From positions 3,661,044-3,725,043 of the forward strand of contig NC_057759.1 in assembly GCF_004010195.1 (NCBI RefSeq): a stretch of DNA of 64,000 nt. The letters are read 5' to 3'. Positions within the stretch are counted from its first letter, which is position 1; each line of letters starts with the position of its first letter. Position numbers and translations under genes: made by a program. This document shows positions 19,653 through 64,000 of the stretch, one piece after another. Under the pieces are notes generated by a model, which did no database searches, had not been told where the DNA came from, and saw only the letters and a program-made list of their open reading frames with translations. Origin of the DNA: Chiloscyllium plagiosum (lineage: Eukaryota).

Positions 19653-19654
19653 TC

Positions 19655-32149: not shown

Positions 32150-32437
32150 TTAGAATAGATTACCTCCAGTTTGAAACAGGCCTTTCAGCCCAACAGGTCT
32201 ACACCGACCCTGCGAAGAGCAATCCACCCAGACCCATACCCTACATTCACCCTGTCTGATGCACCTAACGCGACAGGCAACTTAGCATGGCCAAGTTACC
32301 TAACCTGCATATCTTTGGACTGTGGAAAGAAACCAGAGCACACCGGGGGAAACCCACAGAGACAGTTGCCCATGGCTGGAATCGACCCTGGATCCCTGGC
32401 GCTGTGGGGAAGCAGTGGAAACCACTTAGCCACCGTG
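32150..32437 (-). mobile_element. HE1-like V-SINE (internally deleted)
   Basis: Homology to the other SINE copies. Confidence 0.7.
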
Positions 32438-33751: not shown

Positions 33752-33779
33752 CTCTGAACATTTCGATATTTATTTCGGC
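33752..33779 (-). pseudogene. Candidate cytoplasmic exon (G)RNKYRNVQ(R)
   Basis: ctatatccctcag acceptor, gtgaga donor, phase-1 start matches the TM exon end. Confidence 0.55.
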
Positions 33780-34764
33780 CTGAGGGATATAGAGCAATAA
33801 TGTAATGGTGAAATACATCAAACATGATGGTCAATGTCAATAATATAACACAAAGGCCTGTGGGGTATTGGATATCAGTATCAAAAATCAGAGAATGTTT
33901 AAGAAACACAGCAGCTATGAAACTATCTGTATACACAGAACAAACAGAAATCTAATGCTCAAGGGGGAGTTGGGAGTCCGGGTAAAGGATTCTCTTCAGG
34001 TGAACAGGCAGGTTCAGTTGGCAGTTAGGAAGACAAATGCATTGTTAGCACTCATTGCTAGAGGGTTGAAATACAAGAGCAGAGATGTACTACTGTGGCC
34101 GTATAAGGCTCAGGTCAGACCACATTTGGAACATTAGGAGCAGCTTTAGACCCTGTATGTGTGGAAGAATGTACTGAGCTTGGAGGGAGTCCAGAGGAGG
34201 TTCGCAAGAAAGATCCCAGAGATGAAGGGCTTGCCATGTGACAAATGGTTAAAGAGTAGACATGGAGAAGATGTTTCCAGGAGTAGGAGAGATAAGGATC
34301 CGAGGGCAGGAGGCTTAGAGTGAGGAAGTAACCCTGGAGGAATTTCTTCAAACAGAGGATGGTGAATCTGTCGAAATGTTTGTCACAGAGGGCTATGGAG
34401 ACCAGGTCATTGACTTCCTTGAGAACAGAATTATATCGTGTGTTGAGTGGGAAAGGTGATCCAGGGTTACAGATAAAAGGCAGGACAATGGGTTTGAGAA
34501 ACTTATCAGTCACGATCGATAGATAGGACAAACAGGGACTGAATGCCCTAATTCTGCTCCTATGTCTTAAGGTCTTATAGTCTGTTCAAGGTGCTTGACA
34601 AATTCATTGCTGAGAGGATGATTCGTCCTCATGTGAGAGTGAAGGATCAGAGGGTACAGTCTCAGAATACAGGGGCACCAGTTGAAGAATAAGATGAGGA
34701 GCGATTTCTTCTGTCAGAGAGTTGAGAGTTTTTAGAACTCCACGTTCAAGAGTCTCTCTTTCTC

Positions 34765-34766
<2 letters not shown>

Positions 34767-34820
<54 letters not shown>
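34767..34820. repeat. (TG)27 microsatellite
   Basis: Direct observation. Confidence 0.97.
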
Positions 34821-34823
<3 letters not shown>

Positions 34824-36919: not shown

Positions 36920-37240
36920 AGCACGGTGGCTCAGTGGTTAGCGCTGTTACTTCACAATGCTAGGGACCTGGGTTCGATTTCAGCTTCGGGTGTCTCTCTG
37001 TGTGGAGTTTGCACATTCTTCCTGTGTCTGTGTCTATTCCCTCTGTGCGCTCTGGTTTCCACAATGCAAAGATGTGCAGGGCAAGTGAATTGGTCATGCT
37101 AAATTGCGCATGTTGTTAAAGGGTGTGCAGATTAGGTGCTTTAGGGTAGAGGAATGTGTTTGGGTAGGATATTCTTCAGAGGGTCGATATGGACTTATTG
37201 GGGCAAAGGGCCTGTTTCCACAGTGTCGGGATTCAATGGA
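36920..37240 (+). mobile_element. HE1-like V-SINE
   Basis: gcacggtggctcagtggttagc...ggttcgatt...gtgtggagtttgcacatt. Confidence 0.8.
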
Positions 37241-37857
37241 ACTATGCCTCAGCAATTTTTTTAACCTATTCTACTTAAACCACATCTTTCCTAAAGCAGG
37301 GCGACCAGAATTGTAAGTAGTATTCCGAAAGGAACCTCACCAATATCCTGTACAGCCGGAACTTGACATCCCAACTCCTATTCTCAATGCTCTGACCAAT
37401 GAAGGTGAGTGTGCCAAATGCCTTTTTCACTAACATGTCGACCTGTGACCCTACTTTCAAGGAACTGTGCACCTTTGCCCCTGGATCCTTCTGGTCAACA
37501 ATACTCCCCAGAGCCCCTTTGGCACCATATTTTCAAATAGCATCAATACCTTATTGAACTTGATCACATCTATCTATTCCCTTTACAATGGATAAATTTT
37601 CAGAGCGAAAGAAAACACAGGAACAGGAAAAGACCCATCAGTCTGGTTTAGAACTATTCTAATACCATTTCGTCAGCACTTGGCCTGTAGCCTTGGCATC
37701 ACAACTGCACATCAAAATACATTTCTCCCACCTTAGAGAAGTGAGTTCTACATTCCTCATTATAATCTAGATTAATCCTGGTAATTCGTCGCCACACCCT
37801 CTTCCACTGCTAACAAATCCCTCCTAACCAGTTGCATTACACATTTCAATAAATTAC

Positions 37858-37950
37858 CTTTCTTGAAAATTATGAGGCATACCACAAGTAAAATAATGAT
37901 CACGGCAGCAGATCCCAGTCCGATTTACAGATATAATCCTGGCTTGGCAC
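37858..37950 (-). pseudogene. Transmembrane exon with premature TAA
   Basis: ttttcattgcatag|...|gtaatt; 93 nt, phase 1-1; GAKPGLYL*IGLGSAAVIIILLVVCLIIFKK; stop at 37925-37927. Confidence 0.8.
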
Positions 37951-39234
37951 CTATGCAATGAAAAGCAATGGCGTGACATTAATGAAAAGGAAATAAACAT
38001 CAACATGTCCCGCTGACAATAATATCCATCCTCAAGCATCACATGTTGTATTTTATCACACACATTCTGACTTAAACAGCAAACACAACAAATGGACACT
38101 TCAAAGCCTTTCACAACTTAATGTTCTTGAAATTTAATTCGGAGAGTATATCTGTTCTATCATAGAGTGTTCACCATTTTGTGGCTGCAGAGTGAGATTT
38201 ACTAGAATGTTGTCTTGGAGGCTGGCGAGTTTCAGTGATGGAAATAATTTGCACAGATAGGGATTCTGTTCGTTAGAGCAGGAGAGTTTAAGAGAAATGG
38301 ACATGATTGAGTAGCATACATTGATAAAGGCCATGGTTAGCGTAGACAGGAAGAAGGGATTGATGCCGGGAGAGACGGGAGTGCTATTTTGTCAGTAAGG
38401 GGTAGAAATCTGAGAGGTGATGTGAGAATTTTTGGGAACACCCAGAGAGCAGTGGAAATCTGGAACACTCTGCCTGTAAACATGGAAGAAGCACAAACCT
38501 TCATCATACTGAAGGAGGAGGTGGATGTGCACTTGCGATGCCAAAGCAGACTAAGCTATGGGTTGGCCAATGGGTTCAGAGAATCAGAGGTGTTAGTTTT
38601 TAACCAACACAGATTCGATGTGTGAAAGGTCCTGTTTCTATGCTGTAGCTCTCTATGACCCAAGGACATGCAATTCCAGAACTCCCAGTCAAATCGAGTA
38701 TTACCCAAAATCATTCCCTGAGTATGTCCACTGTTCGTTATTTTGATTACTTCTGCTCCTCTGGCAGATATTCTTGAAGAAATTTCACCTGCTCTGGTTA
38801 ATTCACGAATATGCATCTTTCCACCCAACTCAAAAGCAACGGAGGAAACTTTGCTGAAGATTGGGGACACGAAATGATCTAATAGTCTTGTTTGACAATG
38901 CATGGAAACCTCTCTGTCAAAGCCCAGGGGTTATGCCCTACTGAACAATGGCAGCAGCATCTAGCATTGATTGTGAATCAAGATAAAGTCAGCCAATTCA
39001 GAAGGAGATAGCCACTTACCAGGAGAAGGGGTTTATAACCTACTCTCAGACTTTCGATCAAATTGCAAGCAATTAAAATGAGGGCATAAGACAGGCTTAA
39101 AATCTGAAGTACCACGAATCATTGAACAGTCTTTTTGTAAAGATCAAATCAGACACAAATTAAAATAATAGTTTCTCCTATTCTTACGTATTTATGAAAA
39201 CGAGGAAGACTTTCACATACTAAAGCTCGTAATT

Positions 39235-40210
39235 ACCAGGCTGTAAGTTTGCTCGCTGAGCTAGAAGATTTGTTTTCATACGTTTCGTCACTATACTAGG
39301 TAACATCATCAGTTACCTTGACATGGTTACCTTCGCCTCCGGTGAAGCGTTGGTGTTATGTCCCGCTTTTTAGTTATATTTCTTGGTCAATTAAGGTATG
39401 TGATAACATTTCTGGTTATTTTTCTCAGAGGTTGGTAAATAGGGTTCAAATCGATGTGTTTATTGATGGAGTTCCAGTTTGAATGCCAAGCCTCTGGGAA
39501 CTCTGTCTCTGTTTAGTATTTCCTAGGATGGCTCTGTTGTCCCAGTCGAAGTCGTGTCCTTCTTCGTCTGTATGTAAGTATATTAGTGATGGTGCGTCAT
39601 GTCTTTTGGTAGCTAGTTAGTGTCCATGTATGTTCAAAGCCAGTTTTCTGCTTGTTTGTCTGGTGAAGTGTTTGTTATTGTCCGTGCATAGTATTTTGTA
39701 GATGACATTCGTTTTGCTGGTTGTTTGCTTAGGGTTCTTTAGGTTAATCTCTGACCCGTTGTTTCAGTGTGTTGTTAGGTCCCAATGAAGGGCTTTTTCC
39801 CGAAACGTCGAGTTTCCTGCTCATCGGATGCTGCCTGACCAGCTTTGCTTTTCCAGCAACACTCTAACCTAGACTCTAATCTCCAGCATCTGCAGCCCTC
39901 ACTTATGGCGTGTTGGTAGGTTTGTCGGCTACTGCGATGCCAAGGAGTCTGAGTAGTCTGGTCATCATTTCAGAAATGATGTATGGCAATGTAGCTAGAG
40001 TTTCTGGGTGCATTATGTCTGTTTGTTTTGGTTTGTTGTTTAGGAATAGGAGGACTGTGTTTATTGGATATATATTCTTCTTGAATATGTTGTATAGATA
40101 TCTTTCTTTTCCTGCCCCTGAGTACTACAGTGTGTTGTGGCCCGTTTAACTAATGCCCTGATGCAGCTCCATTTGGGATGATTGCTTCTCTATTTGAGTA
40201 GCTGATGTGT
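39235..40210 (-). mobile_element. PLE GIY-YIG/3' fragment with a nested short repeat; inverted terminal piece at ~40600-40870
   Basis: Homology to 3690-4430. Confidence 0.7.
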
Positions 40211-40887
40211 GTGTGTTGATTTTCTATCGACCCTGTTCTGACGTTTTTCATTAACTGCTTCTTTTGTTGCAAACTGCTGTTGCATTTCTGATGGGGCGAC
40301 TCTCCCGAGCCGCCTCCAGGATGGGATTCTGCACAGCTTTCACATCATGTTGCATGCACACACGCCAACACCAATGTCGGTCACTACAAGCGTGCAGGTA
40401 AGTGTTGTGGTGCCGAGGAGTGTACATGCGGTCCAGGTCATTTGCCTCTGGTGAGAAACAGACCGAAAAGAAAAATAATAATAAACATTTAATAAGCATA
40501 CTTATTTTAAAGATGTGCCTCATAGGAGTGAAAGGCATGAGGAACGCAGCTCACTGCGTCAATGAATGTGGAAATGAATGTGATTTGCATTCCCAGAGGC
40601 CAGGTATTCAAACCAAATCTCCATCAATAAGCACATCGATTTGGAACCCATTTACCAACTTCTGAGTCAAAGAACCGGAAACGCCATTACCCAACTTAAC
40701 AATCTAAGATACACAAACAGAAAGCTGACAGAACATCAGTGCTTCACCAGAGGCTCACTGATGATGTTACCTAACACATGGTGATGGAATATCTGAATAC
40801 AAACCTGCCAGCTCAGCAAGCAAACGTACAGCCTGAACATCAACCTGAGCTACAAATCTTCTCAAAACCGCTAACACATGTAGTTAC

Positions 40888-41217
40888 CTTTTCATGGGTG
40901 TTCCACCTCTCTTTTCTCTGTGACTGAAACAGATTGGCTGGACGGGGTAAGGATGGCCCGCCCATTAACGTCTGTTTGATATCGACAACTGTAGTTTCCT
41001 GTAGAAGAATGTTCATGGACATTGATGGTAAAGGCGGAGTTATCTTCGAGACCAGTCACATGACGATGCTGTATAAAACCTTGCTGCCGGCTGTTATACA
41101 AGTATAATATTCCTCCTCTGGACCGAATCTCACCTTTGCAGGAAATCATGACATTGTCCCTGTTTGAATTCGCAGCGGAATTTGCCAGCACGTTGATAAT
41201 TGGTTTGGAGAGTTGAT
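40888..41217 (-). pseudogene. Ig domain 2 exon (C2-type)
   Basis: DQLSKPIINV...ISCKG...LYLY...SAFTI...GNYSCRY...SQSVSVTEK; 50 aa between the Cys; 330 nt, phase 1-1, to a gtaact donor; TGA at 40892-40894. Confidence 0.85.
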
Positions 41218-42119
41218 CTGTCACATCATTTTAAAATGAAGTCTTTTACAAAACATTTAGTTTTGGCTCTAAAAGCAAAACCCTTGAAAGTTGAAAGGTG
41301 CAGACGAAAGCAATTGCAAAGTTCGGAGAGAGATCTTAACAGCAATAATTTTGGAATCAAATATATCATATAATAACATAATCAGTTGCATAAAAACTAA
41401 TAACTTAATTAATATCATCTTACATCTTACATCATACTATGACACAAAGCAATATAATGTTAGTCAACATCTCTTACTCGAAAACAAATGTTCTGTGTAA
41501 AGCATCATAAACGCCTCCCACATTGTGCCAGGATAATATTGCAATACATAATACTCCTGAAAAAATGCAACAATATTTGAAAAGTTTTATGGCTGTTGAG
41601 AATTAGGAGTCACCTTAATCCTGTGTTAAGAATTAGGAGTCATCTTAAACCTGTGTTACCTCAGCATACCATTCTTGCATTTCCTGTTTAGAATCAGACT
41701 TTATGTAACTCTGTCATATCAGTAACTTGGCTTTTGCAAAAGTGAGCAAGTCTCTGCATGAAAACCGAGGAGAATTCATAAGAAGTACCAAGGATTTGAC
41801 CCAAGTGACTCCCTACTCCATTTTCAATGTAGTGAATCGATGTGAAAAGGGGGTGCTAACAGAGTTTCCCCTCCATCAGCTCCAGGGTAGAACATACTGT
41901 GTTGGTTCCGAAGATTACGAGAGATCTCCACCAAAGACAACAGGATCACACTGACGTGTGAGTGTGCTGGCTCAGCACCTCCTTCCTACAGAATGGCTCC
42001 GGCTTGTGAAAATAGTTTACGTCTGCTGTGTAGGTAGCATATGTCCTTCCTTTGTCTAATTAATGATTGCACTGAATCAAAAATTATTACAAATGGCTGA
42101 TTGCCTGTGATCATTTGTG

Positions 42120-44520
42120 ATCACGAACCTCTATTAAATCCCCGTTGATCAGGTTGCGAAATGTTAAATGGACCGTAATGAGATTGATGTTGGGACATCT
42201 TAATTTAGTGATTGCTGACAGCGGTCTGCATCCCATCCCATGCAGAAATGAAGAGTGTACTTGAGAGTACAACGCTGCAAAGAGTCTTGAGACAGAATAC
42301 TCTGAGACCCTGTTCTTCATAGCCAGTAAGTTCAACCAGGCCAACTTCAAGGACATTCCCCCAACATACCATCAGCCCATCTTCTGTCACACTGGAGGCC
42401 TGAAAATTCTTTCTCGTTGTAAGACAACCATCAAAGGCGCCGAATGCTCCATTCCATCCGGATTTCTTTGAACCAGATCATAATGCTGTGCGCCTATTCC
42501 CTACTGACAAACAGAAATTGAAGAGAGAGTATCCAGTAGAGAAATTAATGCAGTTTTGGTCTGAGACAAGGAAAAACTTCTAGCGGACTGCTGACAGTCA
42601 CTGGACTGTCCAAATTCAAAAACGTAGCGGCCAACCTAGCAAAATGCCACTATTTTTAGACATCAGTAGTAAGCATGTAGACGACTGGGTGTTAAAGATG
42701 TTAAATCCAGTGTTCTCCTACGGGAAACCAGGGATGTACAGGGAAGTCCACTCCCTACTGCAGGTCTGAGGTTTTCAACTCGGCAACGTTGACCTGTCCA
42801 GGAAATCCAGGTGCAACCTCTATAAGGAAACCCGGAATGCTGAGAGGCAACACCACGCTCAGCACAAGATTCAGACCAACCACACAGACACCTGTCACTT
42901 GTGGCAAAGCTTACACAACGTAAAGCGAAATTGAACAGAATCACGGACAAGTGTACACCTCAAATGGTGAGGTCAATGTATTCTACGCTCGCTTTTAACA
43001 GAAGATCAGTGAATTAATGTCACCTTTCCCAACAGTCTCGGATGAACCTGTACCGACAGTCACCATCACAGACATCAGATCAGCCTGCTTCAGAGTGAAC
43101 CCATGTAAAGCGACTGGCCCGAATGGAGTCCTCGGACATTCCCTCAGACCCTGTACTGACCAGGTTGGGGGGGGCTGGGGGAGTACTCAAATGCATCCTT
43201 AACCTCTCCTTACTGTGATGTGACATCCCCAGCTGCTTCAAGAATACACCACCATTCTGATGCCAAAGAAAAATCATGCTACCGCTTGATGGTTGTGACC
43301 CACATAATTATCCATTATCTTCAAGTATTTAGTCATGGCTCACACTAACTATTGCCTACCAATTACCTTGATTCTTTACAATTCACCTTGCGGCACAACA
43401 GCTCTACTGCAGACATCACCTCCTAGCCCTGTTCTCATCCCTGGAACATCTGGATAACAAGGACATTAACGTCGGGTTCCTACTTACTGACTACAGCTCC
43501 ACATCAAACGCCATAATTCTAAACAACCTGACCTGGATGCTCAATCAGTAGGAATAGACAACGATATTTCCTTCACCGTAATCCTCAACACCAGTGCTCG
43601 GCAAGGCTGTGTACTCAGCATCCTACTATACTTCCCTATAAAATCATGACTGTCTAATTACATTCCACCACAAATCCAATTACAGATGTGCAAACAATAC
43701 CACGCTCGTACGGTGGATCTCAAACAATGAGAAGACAGAACACAGGAAAGAGATTGTGTGCTTACCTGTGTGATGCGCAGACGACAATCTCTCCATCAAC
43801 ATCAGCAAAACGAAGGAGCTGAACATTGACATCAGGAAGCAGAGTATTGGGCACCTCTTGTGTGCTTCAAAGGTGCTTAGCTGGAGATGGTGCACAGTAT
43901 CAAGCTGCTGGGAGTGATTGTCATCAACAATCAGGTTCTTGTCCACCCACGTGGACGCAATTGTCCAGAAAACATAACAACATCTCAACTTCCTCAGGAT
44001 GCTAAATAAATTGGGTATGTCCACAAGCACTCTTGCCAGTTTTTATAGAGGGACCACTGAAAGCATCCTATTTAGAGGCATCAAAGCGCGACATGGCAAT
44101 GCTCAAGAAATTAGGTCTTAAACACAGCTCAATCCAGTTCACAAATCTGCCTTCATCTGTTGACTCCATCTAAACTTCCTGCTGCGTCCGGGAAATGGCC
44201 AACATGATCAAAGACTCCTCCCATCACAGGTATATCCTATTCAACCGGACAGAAGCTATGAACGTCTGAATATATGTGACATCAGATTAACGAACAGCTT
44301 CTTCCCTGCTATTTTGAGACTTCTAAATAGTTGTCTAAAATATTAATAGTGACCTCTCTTTCACACTATACATTTTCTCTACAGCTGTTGCACTCTATTC
44401 TTCACTCTGTTCTGCTACCCTGAAGCACTTTGTATGGTAAGATCTGCCTGTAGAGCATGCAAAACATCATGTTTTTCACTGTATCTCGGTACATGTGACA
44501 ACAACAAATTTAAAAAAAAA
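42120..44520 (+). mobile_element. Rex1/Babar-type LINE, degenerate, in the Ig1-Ig2 intron
   Basis: VNPCKATGPNGV, RQGCVLS, KTKELNIDIRK; A-rich tail at ~44510. Confidence 0.75.
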
Positions 44521-44548
44521 CAGGGGAGAAGTGGGGTTAATGCCATAC

Positions 44549-44845
44549 CTCTGACGTGTATCAGAATGATGTCGGTCAATCCTGATGTTCTGCATGTTCG
44601 ATTCACCAACATGAATAAATATTCATACGTGTAACTTGATTCACCTCTCTTTAAGGGTTTTAATTGTGAAGATGTTTCACATTGTCCTTCAGAAAGATCT
44701 ATGACACTGCAACCGGGATCGTGACTGTAACAAGAGTGTATCCTTGTGACTGGACATTGACAGGTACACTTCATTGATGCTGTCTCTTCATCTAAAAATA
44801 CCTCATACGTTGGATTCAGAGACAAAACCGGCTTTGGTAAATCAT
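44549..44845 (-). pseudogene. Ig domain 1 exon (Cys-rich), F-strand Cys lost
   Basis: cctcag|ATGATTTACCAAAGCCG...GTCAGAG|gtatgg; DLPKPVLSLNP...KCTCQCP...SSYTYEY...IHVR; ~57% aa identity (manual alignment) to 59827-60117. Confidence 0.85.
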
Positions 44846-45636
44846 CTGAGGAATGCAATTGAAGCATTTTATCAGCAGAATATGACTAATCAAAATGATA
44901 GAACCTGTTATAATATGCTGACTTTTTGTGCATTTAAAGATCCCACACTCATGAATAGTGTGTGGGATGTGTGAATTCTTAAAAAGGTATCTCTGTTTGA
45001 AATTAATTGAATGTGCATGGGAACACCTGCCTTTGTTAGCTGAGAGTTTAAGAGCAGGAAGTTGGTGCTGGGATTGTATGAAACATTGATTTGTCCAATC
45101 AACGAGACTAACGTGTGCAGTTCTGGAATCAACATTACAGGAGAGATGTGATAGCACTGGGAGAGGATGGGGAGGGAGATTTATTAGGATGTTATCTCAG
45201 GGCTGGAGAGTTCCAGTGATGGAAAGAGATTGGACAGACTGTGGTTGTTTTCCTTAGAGCAGAAGAGATTGAGGGGGGGACATGGTTGACATGTAAAATG
45301 AGGGCCAGAAATAGAATAGACAGGAAGAAACCTTTCGCCCTTGATGGAGGGCGTAATAACTGGGGTGGGGAGTGGGCGTGAGGGGAAGGAAGGTGCATAC
45401 ATCCAAGGTAAGGTGCAGAAGGTTTAGAGAGGGATATGAGGAAAACCTTGTTTACTCCGAGATGGACGGGAATCAGAAACTTACTGCCTGTAACGGTAGG
45501 AGAGGTAAAAACTGTCATCACATTGAAAAAGTGTTAAGATGTACACTTGAGACGCCAAGGCTATGGGGCCACGTACTAGGGAAATGGGATTTGAAAATAG
45601 TGAGGTGGCCGTTTTTGACTAGAGCCGATCCTATGG

Positions 45637-45946
45637 ATTAGATTAGATTACATTACAGTGTGGAAACAGGCCCTTCAGCCCAACAAGTCCACACCGACCC
45701 GCCAAAGCGCAACCCACCCATACCCCTACATTTACCCCTTACCTAACACTACGGGCAATTTTAGCATGGCCAATTCACCTGACCTGCACATCTTTGTGAC
45801 TGTGGGAGGAAACCGGAGCACCCGGAGGAACCCACGCAGACACGGGGAGAACGTGCAAACTCCACACAGTCAGTCACCTGAGTCGGGAATTGAACCCGGG
45901 TCTCTGGCGCTGTGAGGCAGCAGTGCTAACCACTGTGCCACTGTGC
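45637..45946 (-). mobile_element. HE1-like V-SINE, young, full length
   Basis: Intact A/B boxes and (TTAGA)n tail; absent from the paralogous intron at ~57380. Confidence 0.9.
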
Positions 45947-46341
45947 AGCCTTTTGCGGTACTGCAGATCTCGAGGACTGTAAGCCTCTAAGCGTTAGAAT
46001 TTTAAAAAGTATACTAATGGTCATAATACAGTTATGAAGTTTCTAACAACAGAACCTGACAAAGTAACTATGGTCATGTTGAACATTGGAATTCTCACAA
46101 TGTTAGTTATGGAAACTGCTGGGAAATATAATGAGCAAATCAATGGACTTCGTGACAGATGCAAAAGAGAGAGAAATGAGAAGATTAACTTTTAAAATGA
46201 TGTCTATAAAGCTGTACACAAATTTCAGAATTAAGTTTGGTAAGTTGGTTATCATAGGTTTTACTGATAATCAAGCGGAAACACATTAATGAAATAATTT
46301 TGATGTTAATGAATTAATACATTACAAATTATCATACTCAC

Positions 46342-46377
46342 ATATCTCCTGTATTTCGACCAGCACTTGGAAATGAA
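46342..46377 (-). pseudogene. 36-nt leader mini-exon with acceptor AG mutated to AA
   Basis: ttccattAA|TTCATTTCCAAGTGCTGGTCGAAATACAGGAGATAT|gtgagt; homologue of 56965-57000. Confidence 0.8.
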
Positions 46378-52300: not shown

Positions 52301-52359
52301 TGAAAGGGAGCTATATTTTTAAGGTGAAATATTACTAAAATATATTTCATCATTTATAC

Positions 52360-54020
52360 AAAATACCTGGATGTGAACATAGGAGGTACAGTTAGTAAGT
52401 TTGCCAATGACACCAAAATTGGAAGCGTAGGGGAGAGCGAAGAAGGTTACCTCAGATTACAATGGGATCATGACGAGATGGGCAAATGGGCTGATGAGTG
52501 GCAGATGTATTTTCCATAAATGCGTTTTGGAAAAGCAAATCATAGCAGGACTTATACCCTTAATGGTAAGATCTTAGGAAGTGTTGCTGAACAAAGGGAC
52601 CTTGGAGTGCAGTTTCATAGTTCATTGACAGCCGAGTCCCAGGTAGATGGGATAGTGAAGGAGGCATTTATTATACTTTCCTTTATTGGCCAGTATTGAG
52701 AATAAGAGTTGGAACGTCATGCTGTGGCATTACGGGACATTGGTTATGCCACTTGTTTGGGATATTACGTTGCAGTTTCATAGTTCATTGACAGCCGAGT
52801 CCCAGGTAGATGGGATAGTGAAGGAGGCATTTATTATACTTTCCTTTATTGGCCAGTATTGAGAATAAGATTTGGAATGTCATTACGGGACATTGGTTAT
52901 GTCATTTGTTTGGGATATTACGTGCAATTCTTGTCTTATTCCTGTCAGAAGGATATTGTGAAATTTGAAATGGTTCAAAAAAGATTTAAAAGCATGTTGC
53001 CAGGGTTGGAGGATTTGTGTTGTAGGGAGAGGTTGAATCGACTGGGGCGACTTTCCCTGGAGCTTTGGAGGCTGAGGGGTGACCTAATAAATGATTAAAA
53101 ATCATGAGGAGCATGGATAGGATAAATAGGCAATATCTTTTCGCTGGGGTGGGGGAGTCCAGAACTTGAGGGCATAGGTGTATCGTGAAAGTGGAAAGAT
53201 ATAAAATGGACTTAGGGGTGTGAGAAACGAACCCACTTAATCAATAATTTTCAGTCCCATCAAAGAGTTCCAAAGCAATACATTTATTCGAACATCTTTA
53301 AAGATGGGTGGCTCTATGAGGAGAGTCACACCCGACAGTGAAATACAGAGTTTTTTATACTTTCTGAGGGGTCTCTCAACACCCATACACTAAGCAATAA
53401 ACCTATCATAAGTGTCTATTTCATTTTATCCCCTTATTTGGTTATTCCCTGCACCCAAGCCTAAGCCGATCATACTTATTAATTACCACACTTGTTTTCC
53501 TTTTAAATCTGTCTCATTTGGCTGTCACTGTTCGTTACACTCTTCCTGTTATTTTATCCAGTTCCTCTTTTCTAACCTTCTGACTTCTGAGATCATCCTT
53601 TACTATTTTGATTGTCCAAAAGGCAGGCCTACAAACCATGAGCTTATTGCGAAATGCCCTTCCTGTTTCTTTTGTGGTCAGTTACAACACTCAAAGTTAT
53701 TTCTTAGCTTAAAACTATTTCTTTAAAATACTCTCTATATTCGTTAAAACCAACATGCACCTGACAACCTGATTTTTTTTTCTCTCAGGGGCAACTTTTT
53801 GACGTGGGGGGTGGAGCATGCATGGAATGAGCTGCCGGGGAAGTGGTGGAGGTTGATGCAATTTAAAACGCATCTGGATGGGAATATGAGTAGGAAGTGC
53901 TTCGAGGGATATGGGCTAAGTGCTGGAAAATGGGACTAGATTGCGTTTGGATATCTGGTCGGCATGGCCAAATTGGACTGAAGGGTCTGTTTCCATGCGG
54001 TACATCTTTATGACCCTATA
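52360..54020 (+). mobile_element. CR1 LINE 3' fragment interrupted by a solo LTR and carrying a 163-bp tandem duplication
   Basis: SKFANDTKIG; LERLGR..LRGDLI motifs; duplicated units start at 52609 and 52772. Confidence 0.85.
53219..53787 (-). mobile_element. Solo LTR (569 bp)
   Basis: TG...CA ends (tgtgagaaa / tttctctca), 4-bp TSD GGGG, splits CR1 sequence ctagggg|caac; minus-strand TATAAAAA (~53352-53359) followed by AATAAA (~53283-53288). Confidence 0.8.
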
Positions 54021-55335
54021 ATATCAATATGGTTGAGATCTAATAAAATATGTGCAGTTTATAATTAACCTGCGTTAGAATAGGATGAATCTTCAACTAT
54101 CTTGAAACCTCTTTTGCAATTGTGGTTCTACGTTACGTATTCTGCATTACTGGCCATTATCACCGAACTAATAATAATAACAATAATAAGAGTAACAAAT
54201 TTGAATAGACACAGCATTGAGAGCAAGACATGAGGATGCAATTCTCCAACAAGCTGTCTGCCACATGCTCAAGGGCAGATCAGGATGGGTAATAATTGCT
54301 GGCCATGAGTAAATAAAAATAAACTTTATGTCTCCGGAACAAACTTACGAAATGCAAAATCATCTTTTCTTCTCCTGAGGAAACACATTGTTATAATATC
54401 ACAGCATAGAAACAAATCCTTCAGTCGAACCAGTGCATGCCACACATGATACTAAACTAAACTTTCCACCTGCTCCTGGCCCGCACCCTTCAAAATCAAT
54501 CCTATTCATGTAGTTATCCAAATGTATTTCAAATGTTGTAATTTTGCTCACAAGCATAAATTTCTCATCCTGCATGCGAATCAACATCTGTGTAAAACAA
54601 AAACATGCTGTTTTAAAATATCTCTCCTCTCTCCTTAAAAATATGCCCCCTTGTCTTGAAATTGCCTAATTTAGGGAAAAGACAACTCCCATTAACCTGA
54701 CTTGTACCCTTGTGATTTTACAACATCATTTCACAACCTCCTACGTGCCAGTGAAAAAAAAAACCCAGCCTTTCCTTATAACTTAAACATTCCATACCCA
54801 GCAACATCCTGATTAAATCTCTTCTGAGACCTCTTCAACTTGATAACATCCTTCCTATAACTGGTCCTCAAAGTTATACCAGCACATGATGTAGCAACTG
54901 ATTTCATAAATTACAGTAGAATTCAAATAGACATCATATATATACATTTTCTTTGACAGTCAATGCTTGCAATCTTCAGATAATGATGCACTTTGGCTTC
55001 TAACCACTGGGTAATGATAATATTGTCATAGTACCACTCTCTCCTATTGAGAGAGAGATGACTTGGGGAGGGGGGAGCTTATCTTGCGGGTCAGCATGTC
55101 TAAAAAGAGGGATGAGATGGTAGTAATGACAGTTGGATGTGAGAACTGAACCCGTGCTCTTAGTGTGACTGCATCACAAGCCAGCTAGCCAGCCAACTGA
55201 GCTAGCCCCCTGTGTAATCTGGCTGAATGGCCTGAAGGCTCCTAGTTATGCAGACTGCTTCTGCGCTGACTGCTCAACACCATGTTTTTTTTTTCATGAT
55301 GAGCAATAGCGTGCGCAATAGAAATAATTTTGTGA

Positions 55336-55369
55336 AACCACATGACAATTTATCATCTCTGTTCCTGTT
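55336..55369 (+). promoter_or_regulatory. Candidate haematopoietic proximal promoter: RUNX, GATA and ETS motifs
   Basis: AACCACA 55336-55342, TTATCA 55350-55355, TTCCTGTT 55362-55369, ~110-145 bp upstream of ATG 55481. Confidence 0.45.
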
Positions 55370-55480
55370 TCAAAATGCTCAATGCAGACTGTTGGCTTCA
55401 ACTAATAGGATACTTAAGCAAGAAAGAAGGCAAACTCAGATCTCAACGTCCAAAGTATCAGGTGGAAATTTCGTCGGAAA

Positions 55481-55511
55481 ATGTTCGCATTTTCAATCTT
55501 TCTTACAACTG
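55481..55511 (+). CDS. Ig-like receptor exon 1, leader part 1 (MFAFSIFLTT-V)
   Basis: aaaATG context, hydrophobic 10 codons, G|gtaagt phase-1 donor. Confidence 0.75.
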
Positions 55512-56964
55512 GTAAGTAGCCTGCCTTCGAAGATGATACAATAGCAGTATTGAGTTAACTTCTGATCGCCTCATTAAAGGAAGGATGTGGAAGCTTTAGA
55601 CTGGGTACAGAGGAGATTTAACAGGATGCTGCCTGGACTGGAGGGTATATCTTATGAAGAAAGTTTGAGGGCGCTCAGGATTTCTCATTGGAACGAAGAA
55701 GGAAGAGAGGTGACTTGATAGGGGTGTACAAGATGATGACAGGCACAGACACAGTGGATAGCCAGAGATATTTTCCCAGGGTGAAAGGCTATCATGGGGG
55801 GAAGGGGTACATAATTTTACGGTGTTTGGACGAAGGTTTACTGGAGAAGTCTGAGGTAGGTACTTTACACAGAATGGTGTGAGTGTGTAATACACTGCCA
55901 ACAGTTCTATGAAGGCAGATACATTAGGGTTGTTTAAGACATTCTTAGATAGGCACGTGGATTGATAGTAAAATGATGGGTATGTAGGTTAGTTTGGGCT
56001 TAGTGGCAGATAAAAGGTCCGCACAACATGGAGGGCCGAAGGGCCTGTACTGTGCAGTACTATTTTATGTTCTATGTTTAAATATCCTCAAAAAGGTCCA
56101 TCAGATTTCTGAAGCATGTTCAGTATTTAAAGCAGCCAAACTGGTTCTGTCCAATTTTGCCATTTTGCCAAGCTGACAAAGAACTGCATTGACACATTTT
56201 CTTCGCTATTTAAAAGGCTATCGAGTCAGCATGACCATTTTCAATATCTATAGAATTATGAAAGTTGGTCAACAATGCAGCAATTATGTTTCTGGCACTC
56301 TTATAATCCACTTACTTTCAACTCTAGAAATTCTGATATCTTTCATAAAACATACTAAGTCCAAGTTCCCATTAGATATTGTCCATGAAAGGAACTGGCT
56401 ATTGTTGTGGAACCTGAAATGTTTATTTATAATTTTGCGCATCTCCTATTGACCATTTTTTGTGTACTTTCAAAATTTATTCCAGTTCTTTGGTTGTGCC
56501 GTATTTTCCATTGTTCAGCTTTAAGATGAATGATGTCACACTCAAACTTAAAATAAAACTCTGTAGTATAATGGTCACAATTTCCAACAACTCTATGCTG
56601 TTATGGTCACTATTTCCCGAGAAAAAGAACAGGAAATAACATCACTACAGTAAATGATGTGACCACAGTAAATGACATCACCAACCCAAAGAAACCCAAC
56701 ATCTAAATGGAAAGCAGGAATTATCAACAGTGCTTTCCCGGAGACATTCTGAATAGGTTACTAGTAGAATGACGAAACGTCTGGAAATGAACCTTCCAGC
56801 TTCAGCGAGCAAACCTACATCCACATCTTCCAAAAACAATACAATCCCTTTTCGTGGTCCGACCTCCAAATGTGTCATTACAGAAATTTGCATCTCTGTC
56901 TGTCTCCAGATTTTTAAATAGTAACATATTAATATTAATCAATTCCTTTATCACTTCCCAATAG

Positions 56965-57000
56965 TCCACTTCCACATTTTGGTCGAAATGCAGGAGATAT
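56965..57000 (+). CDS. Ig-like receptor exon 2, 36-nt leader mini-exon (V)HFHILVEMQEI(Y)
   Basis: cttcccaatag|...|gtgagt, phase 1-1, conserved in the inverted paralogue. Confidence 0.85.
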
Positions 57001-58019
57001 GTGAGTATGAGAATTTAAAATGCATTTAATTCTTTTACATATACTTAACTGTCTAAATGCTTTTCCACTTGATTATCAGATTGATTGATGAGAAACAGTT
57101 TAAACAAATGTACGGCTAAAATTTGTATCCAGCTTTATCGACATCATTTTGAAAGTTAATGTTATCGTGCGTCTTTTTATTGTCCGTCTATCATGGAGTG
57201 TCACCGATTGGTTGATTATATTTCCTGGCAGTGGACAGAAGAAATAGTGTGAGAATTATAATGAATAATATGAACCTCGTGGCACGATCAGGTTCTGTTG
57301 TTTGAAACTTTATAATCATATTATGACCATAAGAAGATTAAACAAAATTTTATAAACATTAGTCGTACAGTCCCAGAGATATATGACACAGCCATCAGAT
57401 CGATTCTAGTCAAAAGCAGCCACCTCACTATTCTCTAAACCCGTTTTCCCAGAACTTGGTCAAAATCCTTGGTATCACAAGTGTTCATCTAAATTCTTCT
57501 TCAATGTGGTGAGGGTTTCTGCCTCTCCCACCCTTACAGACAGTGAGTTTCAGATTCCCCACTGATGTGAAAACATGTTTCCTCACATCCCCTCTAATCC
57601 TACTTGCCCTTACCTTCAATCTTTGTCCCTCTCCCGTACTCATTGATCTCTCCGTCAATGAGCAGAAAGTTCTTCCTGTCTACCTTATGCATCCCAATAA
57701 TGATCCTCTCTAAATATCCTCTGCTGCAGCGAAAATAACCCTTGTTTGTCCACTCGCCCTCTCACTGAAACTCTACAGTCCCAAGGTAACATCCCTCTGC
57801 ACCCTCTCCTAGTGCTGTCACATCCGTTCTAGAATGTGGATTCCAGATCTGGGCACATTACCCTCGTTCGATGACCGAACCAACACTTTATACAGTCCCT
57901 GCATCATCTCCCTGCTCTAAAACTCTGTGCTCTAAAGGCAAGTATTCCCGTACACTTTGATTAATTTCAAACAGTAAGTGGAACTATCAGCTAAAACTGA
58001 GTAACTTTAGTCTGAAATC

Positions 58020-59720
58020 CTTATGCAGTCTTGGTTGTGAGTATGTTCGCCGAGATGGGCAATTGATTTGCAGATATTTCATCCTCTGTCACGGTGACAT
58101 CTTCAGTGCTTTGTAGCCTCCTGTGAAGTCGTGCTGCACTGTGTCTTCTGGAATTTGGCTCCGTTTCTGCTGCTTCCAGTTCTTCGTTGTAGTGACCGGT
58201 ATATTGGGTACAGGTCAAGGTGCTTGTTGATGGAGTCCGTGTCCATGCTTCGAAGAATTCACTGGCTGACCTCTGTTTAGCTTGTTCTGTGATCGTTGTC
58301 TTGGCCCATTCAAATTTGTTTTCCCTGTCTTCTGTGTGTATAGCTACTCGGGTTAGCTGGTCGTGGTGTTTAGCGGCCAGTTGGTGTTCATGGTTGCAGA
58401 TTGCTAGTTGTCTGTCTGTACATCATCTACATTATTACGTGCAGTCTTTGCATGGTATTTTGTAAATTATTTTAGTCTTGCACATGCTGGGTAAGGGTGT
58501 TTTGTCCTTGTGAGTTGTCTGAGCATGGCTGTCGATTTATGGGCTGACATGAAACCTCATGGTCGGAGAAGTCTGATGTCAACTCGGAGACATTTTTTAA
58601 AATCAGGTAGCGTGGCTAATTTGTTAGGACGTGGCATGTCCTTGTCACGTTGGTTGTTAGCCATCTGCGAATGTAGTTGTAGTGATATCCGTTCTTGGTG
58701 AAGACTCTGTGCACGTGTTTTTTATTCTCTTTGTAGGCCGGGAGTGCTGCAGAGTGTTGAATCCCTAATACAGATTGTCTCGTGGATGTTCGGGTAGTTG
58801 CTGTTGTAATTCAAGATCTGGTCAGGGTGTACTCTTTTGTGGTGCATTCACTGTTCTGTGTTGTTTGTACCATCGCATCCAGGAATAGGAATCGATTGTT
58901 TCTTTCCTCCTCCTGTAAATGTGATTCCTGTGAATATGGTATTAATGATCCGGTGTATATTCTCAATTTATGTTCTCTTACTGATGACAAATGTGGCATC
59001 GCTGTATCTGATTCAGAGTTTGGGTTAGTCTTGTGCTAGTGCTGCTTGTTCCAATCTTTGCATCACTGCTTCTGCTATGAGCCCAGGGATGGGTGAGCCC
59101 ATAGGTGTCCCATTGATCTGTTCATATATTTGAATGCGAAGTGTGTCTAGTATTTTGAGTACACAGTCCTTGTTGGTAGGTTTCCACATCATGTTTTCTG
59201 TTCTGCCTGTTCAGGAGATTGGAAATAGTCTCTCTAGCCAGAGTTTTGTCAAGTGACATAAACAGTGCTGTTACATCAAATGAGACCATTGCTTCGTGCA
59301 AAGGCAGCCTGAAACACGATAAAGGGCAAACAAGAATAAGACTAACAATCCGGATGAACGAACACCAACTAACCACTAAATGCCACGACCAGCTGTCCTG
59401 GTAGCCGTACACACAAACGACAAGGACCACAAATTTGACTGGGACAATACAACGATCAAAGCACACGCTAAACAGAGGACAGTGAGAGATTTGATAGAAA
59501 CAGGCACGGACTCTATCAATAATCACATTGACTTGGACTCAATATAACGGCCACTACAATGAACAACCATAACTGGCAATCAGAAGCAGCAGAAACAGAA
59601 CCAGATAAACAGTACATAATGTTTCACAGGAGTTTCCAATGCACTAAAGATGCCACATGGAGAGGGCACAAAACATCTGCAAATCAATTCCCAGCTGAGA
59701 ACCCAGGCTACAAATCGATG
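58020..59720 (-). mobile_element. PLE fragment (RT + GIY-YIG) with an inverted + strand piece at ~59290-59720
   Basis: MVSFDVTALF, INGTPMGSPI, FLFLDAMV, RMNEHQL; specific to this paralogue's intron. Confidence 0.8.
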
Positions 59721-59826
59721 TACAAACATTTTCAATAAAGTTCACATGAAGTCAGCTTATTGTAACAGTTCAGACATTTTGATTAAACATATTCTACAGA
59801 TGAAATGTTTTAACTGAATTCCGCAG

Positions 59827-60117
59827 ATGATTTCCCCAAGCCAATAGTATCCCTGAATCCATCATATGGAGTGTTTTTGGAAGGAGAGGCAACATCAGTG
59901 AATTGTAGCTGCCAATGTCCAGTCACAAGGGTACAATTTTTTTACAATTCCATATGTCATCACAAAGATCTTCATGAAGGACAATGTGAAACATCTTTAC
60001 CGTTAACACCCTTAAACAGAGGCAAAGCAAGTTACATGTGTGAATGTTTATTTCTGTTGGAGAATGGAACATGGAGAAGATCAGGATTGACTGATCCTGT
60101 TCAGATACATGTCGGAG
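59827..60117 (+). CDS. Ig-like receptor exon 3, Ig domain 1 (7 Cys)
   Basis: ccgcag|ATGATTTCCCCAAGCCA...GTCGGAG|gtatgt; 291 nt open, phase 1-1; DFPKPIVSLNP...VNCSCQCP...ASYMCEC...SGLTDPVQIHV. Confidence 0.88.
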
Positions 60118-60149
60118 GTATGTCATGAAACCTACGTTTACTTTGTATT

Positions 60150-61270
60150 TGATGCTTGATTTAATTTTGTCACATGCACTGAGATAAAGTGAAAAGTGTA
60201 GCTTCACAAGCTTTACACGCAGATCGTGCCTTACAATGTGCATCAGAGTAACTGAGTAGAGTGCAGAATACAGGGATACAGCTGCAGAGAAGGTACAGAG
60301 AGAGACCAGAATTAATATTTGAGAGGTCTGTTCAAAAGTCTGGTAACAATGGGGAAGAAGTTGTTCTTGAATCTGTGCAATCATGTATTCCAACCCTTGT
60401 ATCGTTTACCTGACGAAAAAGAGTGGCATACAATAAAATTACGGTGGTGGGGATTTCTTGATTATTTTGGTTGCTGTCCTGAGTATCGAAGAGATCAAAA
60501 GATGGAAGGTTGGTTTATACGTCGTTCACAACTCTCTGTGATTTCTTGAGCACTTGCTATACTGTGCTGCAGTCAAATATGGTGCAATTATAAAAAAAGT
60601 ATTAAGGGCAGCTTGTGGACATTCTGCCCTTTGTTAGCCTCCTGAGGAAGTAGAGAACCTGTTATGCATCCTTGACCATCGCGTTGACATGCGAGGTGCG
60701 TGACAGATTGTTTGCAATCATCACTGCCAGGAACTTGTCACCCTCGACCATCTCTACTTCAGCACTATTGATGCATCTGAGGGCATGCCCTCCTCTCTGA
60801 TTCTTGAAGTCAATGCTGAAATCCTTGATTTTGCTGATTTTGCTGATGTTGTTGTCTTTACAAAATGCTGCTAAGCACACAGTTTCTTTTCTGTATTTCG
60901 TCTCATCATTGTTTCACATCTGACCGATAACGGTGGTTATCGGTCAGATAACCTGTGAATGGATTTGGGTGAGAATTTGGCCCCACAGTCGTGAGTGTGT
61001 TATGAGTATAGATGTGTGCTGAAACCGCAACCATGTGGGGAATCGGTATTGTGGATTATGATAGAGGAAGCATTGCTGCACATTCTGACTAATTGTGGTC
61101 TATGTATCAGGAGTTCGGGATTCAGTTACAGAGGGAGGAGCCGAGACCGAGGTCTCAGAATTTAGAAATGGGTTCGTTTGGAATTATGGTGTTGAACGCG
61201 GAGCTGTAGTCAGACACTGACGTAGGTGTCCTTGCTATCCAGAAGTTCCAGGGATGAGCATAGTGATGTC
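60150..61270 (-). mobile_element. Rex1/Babar-type LINE 3' part, positionally equivalent to 42120-44520
   Basis: Homologous 3' end just downstream of the Ig1 donor; NSAEVEMVEGDKFLAVMI.NNLS. Confidence 0.7.
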
Positions 61271-61309
61271 TGCTGGGGACAGTTAAAACACTGACATTGA
61301 TCTAACAAT

Positions 61310-63640
61310 GTGTAAAAGTGCCCAGGTACATCCGGTACACAAAATGCAAGACAAATCCAACCGACCAATTACCGCCCAATTAGTCTACTCTCCGTCATCA
61401 GTATAGTGATGGAAGGGGCCATTAAATTGTGGGCGGTACGGCGGTACAGTGGCACAGTGGCTAGCACTGCTGCCTCACAGCGCCGGAGACCCGGGTTCAA
61501 TTCCTGCCTCAGGCGACTGACTGTGTGGAGTTTGCACGTTCTCCCCGTGTATGCATGGGTTTCCTCCGGGTGCTCCGGTTTCCTCCCACATTCCAAAAAT
61601 GTGCAGGTAAGGTGAATTGGCCATGCTAAATTGCCCGTAGTGTTAGGTAAGGGGTAAATGTAGGGGTATGGGAGGGTTGCGCTTCGGCGGGTCGGTGTGG
61701 GCCTGTTTCCACACTGTAATGTAATCTAAAATGTGCTATCAAGCAGGTCCTGCTCAGCCACAATCTGCTGAGTGCCGCCCCGTTTTGGTTTGGCCAGGAT
61801 CCATCAGATCCAGATCTCAATACAAATCTCAATCTCAGTTCAAACGTGGAAAAAAGAGTTGAATTCCATGGTTGAGGTTAGCTTCATACCTCGCACAAAA
61901 GAAGATGGTTATGGTTATGGAGGGTCAGTCATCTCAGCTTCGGGACATCACTGCAGGAGTCCCTCAGGGTCGCGTCTTCCACGCAACAATCTTCAGCTGC
62001 TTCATCAACGGCCTTTGATATTCGGCAATGATTGCACAGAGTTTAGCGTCATTTGTGACTCCTCAGGTACTGAAGCAGTTCATGTTTAAACGCAACAAGT
62101 TCTGGACAATATCAGGCTTGGGCCAACAAGTGGCAAGGAACATTCGCACCACACAAATGCCAGACAATGGCCAAAGGAAACTGTGAGAAGTAACGGGAAT
62201 ACAGACTACTGGGATAATGGTAAGACTCTTGGTAGTATCAGTGAGCAAAGAGATCTCGGTGTCCATGTGCATAGATCCTTGAGAATTGACACCCTGGTTG
62301 ATAGTTTTGTTGAGAAGGCGTATGGTTTGTGGGTAGAGGGATTTAGTTTCGGAGCCATGAGGTCATGTTGCAGCTGGACAAAATTCTGGTGCGGCCGCGC
62401 TTGAAGTCATGTGTACATGTTGGTCGCTGCATTATAGGAAAGTTGAGGAGGCATTTGAACGAGTGCAAAGGAGATTTTGCAGGATGTTGCCTGGCATGGT
62501 GGGGGGGCCTTATGAGCAAAGGGTGAGGGACATCAGGCTGCATTTGTTCGAGAGACGAAAGTTGAGAGGTGACTTATTCGAGACATACAAGATAATCACA
62601 TGATTGGATCGGGTGGATAGTGAGAGCTTTTACCTCGGGCGATGCTGGCTAGCACGAGGGGACACAGCTTTAAATTGAAGGATGGGTGACTTCAGAGGTA
62701 GATTCCTTGCTCAGAAAGTAGTAGGGGCGTAGAATGCCCTGCTTGCAAATGTAGTAGACTCACCAACTTTACTGGCATTTAAATAGTTATTATATAAATA
62801 TATGGATAATAATGTTATAGTGTAGGTTAGATGGGCTTCAGATCGGTTTCACATGTCAATGCAACGTCGATGGCCGAGGGGCCTGTGCTAGACTGTATTG
62901 TTCTATGTTCCATCGCAAGTAAGAGATGCTCTAACCACCTCCGTTTGACGTACAATGGTATTACCTTCACGGAATCTCCTACTGTCAACATGGTTGAGAT
63001 TACCATTGACAGGAAGGTCAGCTGGACTCACCACGTAAAACACAGTGGCTCCAACAGCCGTTCGGGGATGAGGGATACTACGGTGTGTAACTCACCTCCT
63101 GAAACCCTAAAATCGATACACAAAGCACAAGTCAGGAGTGTGATGGAAACGACCCCACATGCGTGAATTGGGGCAGCCGCAACAACATTATAACACTTGA
63201 CATCATGCAGGACAAAGTGACCCGCTTGATTGGCACATCTACAAGCTTTCAATCTCAGTACCACCAGTGTTCAGTAACAGCAGCATGTACTATTTACAAG
63301 ATGCACTGCAGAAATTCTCCAAATATCCTTAGTACCTTCCAAACCCATGACCACTTCCAAGTAGAAGGACGAGGGCAGGAGATACTTGGAAACATCACTA
63401 CCAGCAAGTTCCCCTCCAAGCCACTCACCACCCTGACTTGGAAATATACCACCTTTCCTTTCGCAGTCATTGGACAAAATCCTGGATTTCCCTCTCGACC
63501 GGCATTGTGGGTAAACCGACAGCAAATGGACTGCAGCGATTCAAGAAAGCAGTTCCCACCAGTTTCTTAAGGGCAAATAGGGACGGGCTATCAATGCTGG
63601 CCAGCTAACGACGCCAAAGTCCCATAAATGAAAAACAAAA
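61310..63640 (+). mobile_element. L2/CR1-clade LINE interrupted by a V-SINE (~61435-61729) and a CR1 fragment (~62175-62910)
   Basis: NYRPISLLSVIS.VMEG; ESPTVN; KAQVRSVME; LDIMQDKVTRLIG. Confidence 0.75.
61435..61729 (+). mobile_element. HE1-like V-SINE
   Basis: A/B boxes, V-core and tail. Confidence 0.9.
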
Positions 63641-63879
63641 ACTCAATACTAACATTATGTAGTGTACTATTTTATAGGATGATATCAGTTAAGGTTTATT
63701 TGGTTAACATTTACTTTGCAACTTGTTTATGCATTTGATTTAAAAATTTTGCTATGAAGATCTCTCTTTCTGGACTTTGCAATTGTTTTCTTCCACACTT
63801 TCTTCTTTCGAGTGTTTTGATTTTTTAAAAAATACGATTGTTCTTTTTTGTAAAAGTCTACTTTAAAATTATGGAACAG

Positions 63880-64000
63880 ATCAACTCTCCAAACCGAATA
63901 TCAAAGCGTTGTCAGATTCCGATGCCAATTCAAGCAGGGACATTGTATCGATTTCCTGCCAAGGTGATATTCGGCCCAGTGGAGGAATATTCTCCTTTTA
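63880..64000 (+). CDS. Ig-like receptor exon 4, Ig domain 2 (partial, runs off the window)
   Basis: gaacag|ATCAACTCTCCAAACCG; DQLSKPNIKALSDSDANSSRDIVSISCQGDIRPSGGIFSF, homologous to 41217-41100; not in the ORF track. Confidence 0.85.
   Translation, partial: MNSPNRISKRCQIPMPIQAGTLYRFPAKVIFGPVEEYSPF

Follow-up and report, generated by a model that had tools for sequence, protein, structure and literature searches.

The stretch analysed here, 64,000 nucleotides of the shark Chiloscyllium plagiosum (contig NC_057759.1, positions 3,661,044 to 3,725,043; "the window" means this whole stretch), contains two related immunoglobulin (Ig) receptor genes lying head-to-head, gene A on the minus strand and gene B on the plus strand, together with the remains of a third family copy, relic C (Table 1). 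We give a probability of about three in four to the reading that A and B are two paralogues, of which B is likely a "brake" carrying an immunoreceptor tyrosine-based inhibitory motif (ITIM) and A is a pseudogene with seven defects and an intact orthologue in Hemiscyllium. The initial annotation, which covered 33,752-64,000, described the pair as an old inverted duplication in a diversifying receptor cluster; it contained neither the pseudogene state of A nor its extension to 30,171, outside that range.

Gene B has a leader split over two exons, and its exons have canonical splice sites and match the database models P0001, P0002 and P0013 at 100%. The transmembrane and tail portions lie beyond the window and are known from these three models. 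They describe a leader followed by a pair of Ig domains, a membrane segment free of charged residues, and a tail in which EYSKV, VTYAAL and MYMDV occur; the ITIM VTYAAL, identified at the motif level, is present in P0002 and P0013. P0002 has no membrane exon and P0013 no Ig1, differences that presumably reflect real splicing. Judged from its match to intact database models, gene B appears to encode a two-Ig, single-pass, ITIM-bearing receptor, which by analogy probably restrains immune cells as an ITIM brake. A match of P0122 to 63,411-63,557 was set aside as probably repeat-derived.

Table 1. Exons, relics and mirrored homology blocks identified in the window
Feature	Position	Strand	Remarks
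Gene A S2 mini-exon	46342..46377	-	acceptor AA, not AG; in-frame cryptic AG 12 nt inside
Gene A Ig1 exon	44549..44845	-	open frame; both F-strand cysteines are Tyr
Gene A Ig2 exon, 330 nt	40888..41217	-	TGA at 40,894-40,892, just before the donor
Gene A transmembrane exon, 93 nt	37858..37950	-	TAA at 37,927-37,925
Gene A tail exon 1, 28 nt	33752..33779	-	
Gene A tail exon 2, 53 nt	33540..33592	-	
Gene A tail exon 3, 35 nt	31645..31679	-	donor AT, not GT
Gene A last exon, ITIM-like VTYAVL	30171..30301	-	frameshift near 30,194 deletes the last tyrosine motif
Gene B leader exon S1, ATG to GT donor, 31 nt	55481..55511	+	100% match to P0001 N-terminus
Gene B leader mini-exon S2, AG/GT, 36 nt	56965..57000	+	canonical sites; P0001 match
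Gene B Ig1 exon, 291 nt	59827..60117	+	CxCxC and CxC cysteines intact
Gene B Ig2 exon, continues past the window end	63880..64000	+	P0001/P0002/P0013 match
Relic C, orphan frameshifted last exon, third family copy	18032..18168	-	matched with relatives
Mirror block 1	41,097-41,422~64,000-63,675		74% (BLAST)
Mirror block 2	43,429-43,528~61,263-61,171		75% (BLAST)
Mirror block 3	43,542-44,935~61,095-59,738		67% (BLAST)
Mirror block 4	44,993-45,636~57,974-57,392		68% (BLAST)
Mirror block 5	45,967-46,449~57,380-56,893		71% (BLAST)
Mirror block 6	47,650-47,917~56,617-56,338		68% (BLAST)
Last first-intron homology block, A side	47,606-47,926	-	nothing like the B first exon beyond

When the window was searched with the relatives of these genes, the skeleton of gene A was found to be complete on the minus strand down to its last exon, with consistent exon phases. 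Seven defects were identified, namely a missing first exon, the AA acceptor of S2, the loss of Ig1 cysteines, the TGA and TAA stops, the AT donor and the frameshift. The two lost cysteines are conserved as Cys in 34/34 and 31/34 aligned relatives. A copy of the first exon of B was sought in 46,450-55,300 on both strands and in 1-46,449 on the minus strand, and only chance-level scores were obtained (best 27, against a shuffled maximum of 33 and 190 for the S2 control). No database protein more than 80% identical to the Ig2 of A was found in a weak search that returned four matches among 32 candidates. On this sequence evidence gene A is a pseudogene, and its orthologue in Hemiscyllium, P0012, is intact. 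The lesions were read from one assembly, which weighs against this reading. Sampled words from 37,700-46,500 are present at fractions of 0.73-0.90 in 8 of the 24 sequencing runs listed, which come from two studies; the best of these runs may be the assembly's own sample, and none of the 24 is an RNA run holding this region.

The homology between the two genes was examined by comparing 40,000-52,000 with 52,001-64,000. Thirteen minus-strand BLAST rows were obtained, seven of them with low repeat depth (at most 1.5 on both sides), and six of these seven lie in strict reverse order, from 41,097~64,000 to 47,917~56,338, with identities of 67-75%; a Spearman coefficient of -1 was obtained on six hand-picked blocks and is thus no test. 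The seventh low-depth row and the six rows of higher depth are dispersed repeats off the diagonal, and 45,643-45,950~61,729-61,440 (89%) was rejected as part of the duplication, being an off-diagonal dispersed short repeat. A self-comparison of the window and a finer comparison of 25,000-52,000 with 52,001-64,000 both show the anti-diagonal, introns included, as expected for an inverted pair of paralogues. The two blocks listed in the initial annotation as mirrored (46000-46445~57380-56890 and 47600-47950~56620-56300) reach local scores of 187 and 89, whereas 100 base shuffles of each gave no score above 19 and 18, respectively. Its estimates of about 57% identity between the Ig1 domains and about 10.6 kb between the mini-exons also hold, at 55 of 96 residues and 10,587 bp, respectively. 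Identity is 8/11 residues in S2 and 23/39 in Ig2 (the 39 Ig2 codons within the window). The mirrored stretch extends over 41,097-47,926 (minus) in A and 64,000-56,328 (plus) in B, the homology ending within the first intron on both sides. Transcription had been called divergent; the opposite orientation stands, but because A has no detectable first exon, it is a matter of orientation only.

Non-exon DNA of A and B, taken from six non-exon blocks, is 72.9% identical over 1,201 aligned columns (corrected distance 0.34), which is close to the dS of 0.30. The dN/dS ratio between the genes, 0.77 (95% interval 0.48-1.32; 146 codons, one partner being a pseudogene), neither demonstrates nor excludes selection, and the cluster is thus not shown to be "diversifying", as had been proposed. 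Gene A has nothing corresponding to about 1.7 kb of the second intron of B (approximately 57,975-59,740), which includes a pair of inverted repeats (58,053-58,408~59,696-59,341, 73%); retroelement insertions after the duplication are the probable source of this extra DNA. The head-to-head layout is most likely without present function, and such an arrangement, a live gene next to a dead paralogue in inverted orientation, is nothing unusual in an immune-receptor cluster.

The relationships of A and B were analysed together with LOC122544523, a further C. plagiosum gene (gene D), using the two Ig domains (D1 and D2; trees of 26-27 rows and of 15-16 rows) and the transmembrane segment plus tail (12 rows, with P0012 standing for A). 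RefSeq LOC122544523, LOC132837097, LOC132837309 and LOC132837371 all belong to the same family and share the same exon plan, although, being automatic models, they are named "uncharacterized" or "IGSF1-like". Gene A groups with P0012 of the epaulette shark, Hemiscyllium ocellatum, on D1 (100/96 and 99/98; 80% identity in both domains) and, in the 15-16-row tree, on D2 (91/96; not resolved in the 26-27-row tree). Gene B groups with C. punctatum P0003 and H. ocellatum P0015 on D2 (95/93 and 84/96), and gene D with H. ocellatum P0007 (99/93, 99/99). The orthologues in H. ocellatum are LOC132837097 for A, which is intact, and LOC132837309 for B. Because separate Hemiscyllium orthologues exist for A and for B, the split between the two genes predates that of Chiloscyllium and Hemiscyllium; with gene D paired in the same way, all three lineages predate the genus split, and A died later. 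The part of the initial annotation that called A and B old inverted paralogues is therefore upheld, but not the part that made them two products of one duplication: in the best tree of all three partitions the A lineage joins gene D (D1 79/91, D2 46/81, transmembrane plus tail 100/100) and not B, so that A and B are old paralogues but probably not sisters. Grouping A with B is rejected on the transmembrane and tail partition (p-AU 1e-6), and the tail exons of A match those of D at 7/8, 13/17 and 32/36 residues, versus 3/8, 9/17 and 23/36 for B. Under this reading, the ancestor of the B and A/D lineages would have duplicated before the genera separated, A would have arisen on the same branch as D and come to lie, or stayed, head-to-head with B, and it would afterwards have died on the line leading to the C. 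plagiosum genome.

Other histories of the pair are less probable. A and B might be the direct products of one inverted duplication, the transmembrane and tail exons of A having later been replaced from the LOC122544523 lineage by gene conversion or recombination. The two genes are adjacent; grouping A with B is not rejected on D1 (p-AU 0.066) or D2 (0.25), and the Ig2 of A is closer to B-lineage proteins (67-72%) than to D (64-66%). These points count against the A/D grouping and make exon mosaicism possible, but the best D1 and D2 trees also join A with D, the D1 of A is 63-64% identical to D versus 57-59% to B, and A and D share a two-residue D1 insertion that B does not have, and we regard this history as unlikely. 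Far less credible still is a living gene A that encodes a secreted decoy, in which the stop after Ig2 removes the membrane part and the downstream exons decayed later. Both Ig exons of A do have open frames with AG/GT sites, its Ig2 branch is short (0.055, versus 0.17 for the intact orthologue), the cryptic acceptor in S2 is in frame, database isoforms of B occur without the transmembrane exon or D1, and soluble leukocyte receptor complex (LRC) members are similarly cut off before the membrane. Nevertheless, no leader exon or start was found for A, both F-strand cysteines of its Ig1 are lost, and the weak database search returned no protein from A. An assembly error, with the genes in tandem in the animal, is comparably improbable: a head-to-head KIR3DX pair in the marmoset is a suspected assembly failure (PMC8562567) and the spacer here is rich in repeats, but no N gap lies between A and B (the sole N run in the window is 12,480-12,735), and at 27% the divergence between the copies is too great to have come from collapse or swapping.

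Relic C sits in a region (13,044-19,654) whose blocks repeat 28,391-32,942, the 3' region of A, in direct orientation (61-71%); it matches zebra and whale shark genes at 25-26/36 residues, versus 21/36 for B and 23-24/36 for D. The segment 21,977-22,955 is a 68% direct copy of 42,446-43,398, in the Ig1-Ig2 intron of A, and judging from the sequence may be a further part of relic C or a low-copy retroelement. No other family exon was found in the window at E 0.01 when 203 fetched proteins were searched. A search of the window with the tails of three relatives for an activating-type transmembrane exon gave its best match at 54,238-54,149 in the spacer (E 0.004), which contains no motif, was not reproduced and was dismissed as chance. 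Small exon-like stretches with good splice sites were seen by eye at approximately 27,021-26,900 and at 25,560-25,535 (minus strand), and neither matched any fetched family protein. Positions 1-2,775 hold a reverse-transcriptase-like retroelement, presumably Penelope-type, present in both orientations (389-517 versus 1,803-2,775) with an in-frame array of 129-bp units at its end (6.9 copies, 99%, 1,889-2,775); the array may have truly expanded or may be a stutter of the assembly.

The family extends well beyond the window, as the initial annotation had supposed. A fourth C. plagiosum gene, LOC122547209, lies on a 25-kb scaffold, and several near-identical loci are found on one 27-Mb sequence of the horn shark. 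A profile of 11 proteins retrieved 19 relatives in a word-indexed search and 674 at E <=0.001 among 1.84 billion representatives, 150 of these 674 being listed. The 30 proteins whose names were looked up come from sawshark, horn shark, basking shark, catsharks, sevengill, smooth-hound, white shark, rays and elephant shark, with farther ones in turtles, a lizard, opossum, a frog (named FCRL5) and a grouper. The genes of whale shark (Rhincodon, three genes) and zebra shark (Stegostoma, two genes) form species clades, consistent with lineage-specific gains; on the sequences, such clades could represent separate births or homogenisation, and gene conversion could mimic them. Together with the lineages shared by Chiloscyllium and Hemiscyllium, pseudogene A and relic C, they bear out the proposed birth-and-death evolution. 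No description of the family was found in CC-licensed PMC/bioRxiv literature, a coverage that excludes subscription immunology journals, and the main text of the whale shark genome paper contains no mention of LILR or IGSF1.

Relatives occur with long ITIM tails or with short tails, and two sawshark proteins (P0016 and P0019) combine near-identical Ig domains with opposite tails. In a single model, P0008, an uncharged membrane segment is followed by a His-type one. Judging from P0008, P0009 and P0016/P0019, alternative splicing may let a single gene produce brake as well as accelerator forms. Among ten short-tailed forms, chosen by hand and aligned, the key membrane position is Arg in three, His in five and Gln in two, and eight have an acidic residue at the end of the membrane segment. 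Additional cysteines are conserved in D1 at positions 51 (28/31 relatives), 53 (26/31), 76 (27/34) and 96 (31/34), and their strand positions suggest extra disulfides. Two ray proteins are giants (P0020/P0021), with 3,218 aa and 17 matching stretches in Pristis and 2,368 aa and 11 in Narcine.

Several searches place the family nearest to LRC receptors. In PDB sequence searches PirB was the best of four matches (E=1.4e-6) and, for Ig1, CHIR-AB1 the best of nine (E=0.0018); A Ig2 alone gave nothing under E 0.3. Pfam gave sub-threshold Ig hits on A Ig2; B Ig1 and the partial B Ig2 drew no match, and a weak SWIM match on A Ig1 was rejected as a chance match in a cysteine-rich domain. An AlphaFold model of P0001 (34 sequences; pLDDT 83) has two Ig folds and a membrane helix. 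The top 20 Foldseek matches to this fold comprise 18 named LRC receptors, OSCAR first (E 2.6e-10), and two labelled "Protein receptor". In VIA (48,161 chains) ranks 1-9 are all LRC receptors (PirB, OSCAR, CHIR-AB1, LAIR1, LILRB4, LILRB1 and KIR3DL1) with Z 11.7-13.3, CHIR-AB1 reaching Z 12.9 at 1.9 A over 91 residues, while FCRLA (10.1), FcgRI (9.9) and FCRL5 (8.8) score lower. The Ig domains are thus closer to the LRC by both sequence and fold, by modest margins (Z 13.3 versus 11.2 for PECAM-1 and 10.1 for FCRLA), and the ITIM tail of P0002/P0013 agrees with this at motif level. Judged by sequence and predicted fold, the family appears closest to LRC receptors (PirB, OSCAR, CHIR, LAIR1). Several observations weigh against this placement. 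By sequence, FCRL5 ranks second for Ig1 (E=0.071), PECAM-1 (Z 11.2) stands close behind the LRC rows in VIA, and the full NxxR occurs in none of the ten short-tailed forms (Asn in 1/10, Arg in 3/10). NxxR is described as a membrane type in a source that also calls automatic LRC names in non-mammals misleading (PMC6557307); since KIR and CHIR lack it and Xenopus FCRL has it (PMC2413239), it is not a strict family marker.

The gene-id neighbourhood also speaks against the placement. The gene B models lie on a sequence of 8,079,144 bp, equal in length to the one that carries LOC122544523, which suggests the same species and probable linkage. The gene-id neighbours of LOC122544523 include CDC42SE1, APH1A, RPS27, MCL1, SHE and PRUNE1, which we take to be human 1q21 genes. 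These ids come further on, after histones and PECAM-like and HSPG2-like B-cell markers, an id order that is not proof of linkage (PMC11372145). None of the neighbours listed is TTYH1, LENG8, CDC42EP5, RPS9, TSEN34 or MBOAT7, which are among the genes flanking the LRC (PMC6557307), and LOC122544523 is not among the matches listed from the marker table of PMC11372145. Of the ids adjoining it, LOC122544480 (IGSF1-like) strongly marks myeloid cells, and LOC122544513/517 strongly mark B cells (PMC11372145, Supplementary Data 2). The family may accordingly be a sister group or an offshoot of the FCRL/1q21-type receptors, or a line of the common FcR/KIR stock that is specific to sharks, and not true LRC, which we consider doubtful but worth keeping in view. 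Besides the gene-id neighbours, this view draws on an Arg membrane type that also occurs in Xenopus FCRL and SLAM receptors (PMC6557307, PMC2413239) and on the FCRL5-annotated frog protein P0060 among the profile matches listed. Against it, sequence and fold searches place LRC first, the Atlas neighbours that carry names (IGSF1-like, A1BG and KIR3DX1, at scores of 0.91-0.92) offer no more than a lead, and the leader exons of gene B are 31/36 nt and not the 30/21 nt of FCRL, a rule that only a fraction of Xenopus FCRL genes follow (PMC2413239). LRC genes, too, have a split leader (PMC3601082), and the FcR and KIR families have a common origin (PMC2413239). We prefer the LRC-like placement and infer that the family works like an inhibitory LRC receptor; it is not filed as an LRC member because the gene-id neighbours of LOC122544523 are not the LRC flanking genes.

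By analogy with LILRB, PirB and LAIR1, the two Ig domains would bind a ligand, for which the candidate classes are MHC class I, immunoglobulin, collagen and pathogen molecules. These mammalian receptors inhibit through SHP-1/2 signalling. In the same way, VTYAAL and the terminal tyrosine motifs would be phosphorylated and recruit SHP-1/SHP-2-type phosphatases, which would damp activation, and short-tailed forms would pair with an adaptor bearing an immunoreceptor tyrosine-based activation motif and so balance the brake.

[quoted passage not shown] If an elasmobranch-wide family with ITIM and Arg/His-membrane forms is real, paired LRC-type receptors would go back to the jawed-vertebrate ancestor. 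We tentatively suggest, as an idea with the odds against it, that sharks keep an ancestral paired-receptor system, an LRC-lineage brake and accelerator with a cysteine-rich D1 that shares a small chromosome, in a 1q21-like region, with FCRL-type genes; the human LRC (19q13.4) and FCRL (1q21-23) would then be its split halves, and gene A a recent, datable loss. The value of the locus lies in an LRC-like shark family and a datable, testable loss, more than in the layout: with a living orthologue in the laboratory-kept H. ocellatum, gene content, haplotype variation and ligand can be tested.

Among known systems, the FCRL genes, including Xenopus XFL, resemble the shark family as paired Ig receptors with birth-and-death evolution and a split leader, but differ in leader exon lengths (30/21 nt in FCRL versus 31/36 in shark B) (PMC2413239) and have lower fold scores. 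The chicken CHIR cluster is similar in that blocks have duplicated and that incomplete copies and pseudogenes (41 of 103 CHIR loci) stand next to functional genes (PMC1458963); the shark locus, unlike it, has three copies or relics in 64 kb, with few known genes per carpet-shark genome, and gives no sign of a dense array. OSCAR is the top Foldseek match and has the lowest two-domain root-mean-square deviation among the LRC rows in VIA (5.9 A). The activating OSCAR, GPVI, NKp46 and LILRA receptors (NxxR) have a membrane segment similar to that of the short-tailed shark relatives, which are without full NxxR, whereas A and B have an inhibitory build. The second exon of LILR and KIR genes is 36 nt, a length for which the literature searches returned no printed statement. 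Compared with the inhibitory LRC receptors, the shark D1 has extra conserved cysteines and the structural identity is approximately 14-24%, but LILRB/PirB, LAIR1, inhibitory KIR and CHIR-B share with the shark family a split leader, one exon per Ig domain, an uncharged transmembrane segment and a V-x-Y-x-x-L motif in a multi-exon tail.

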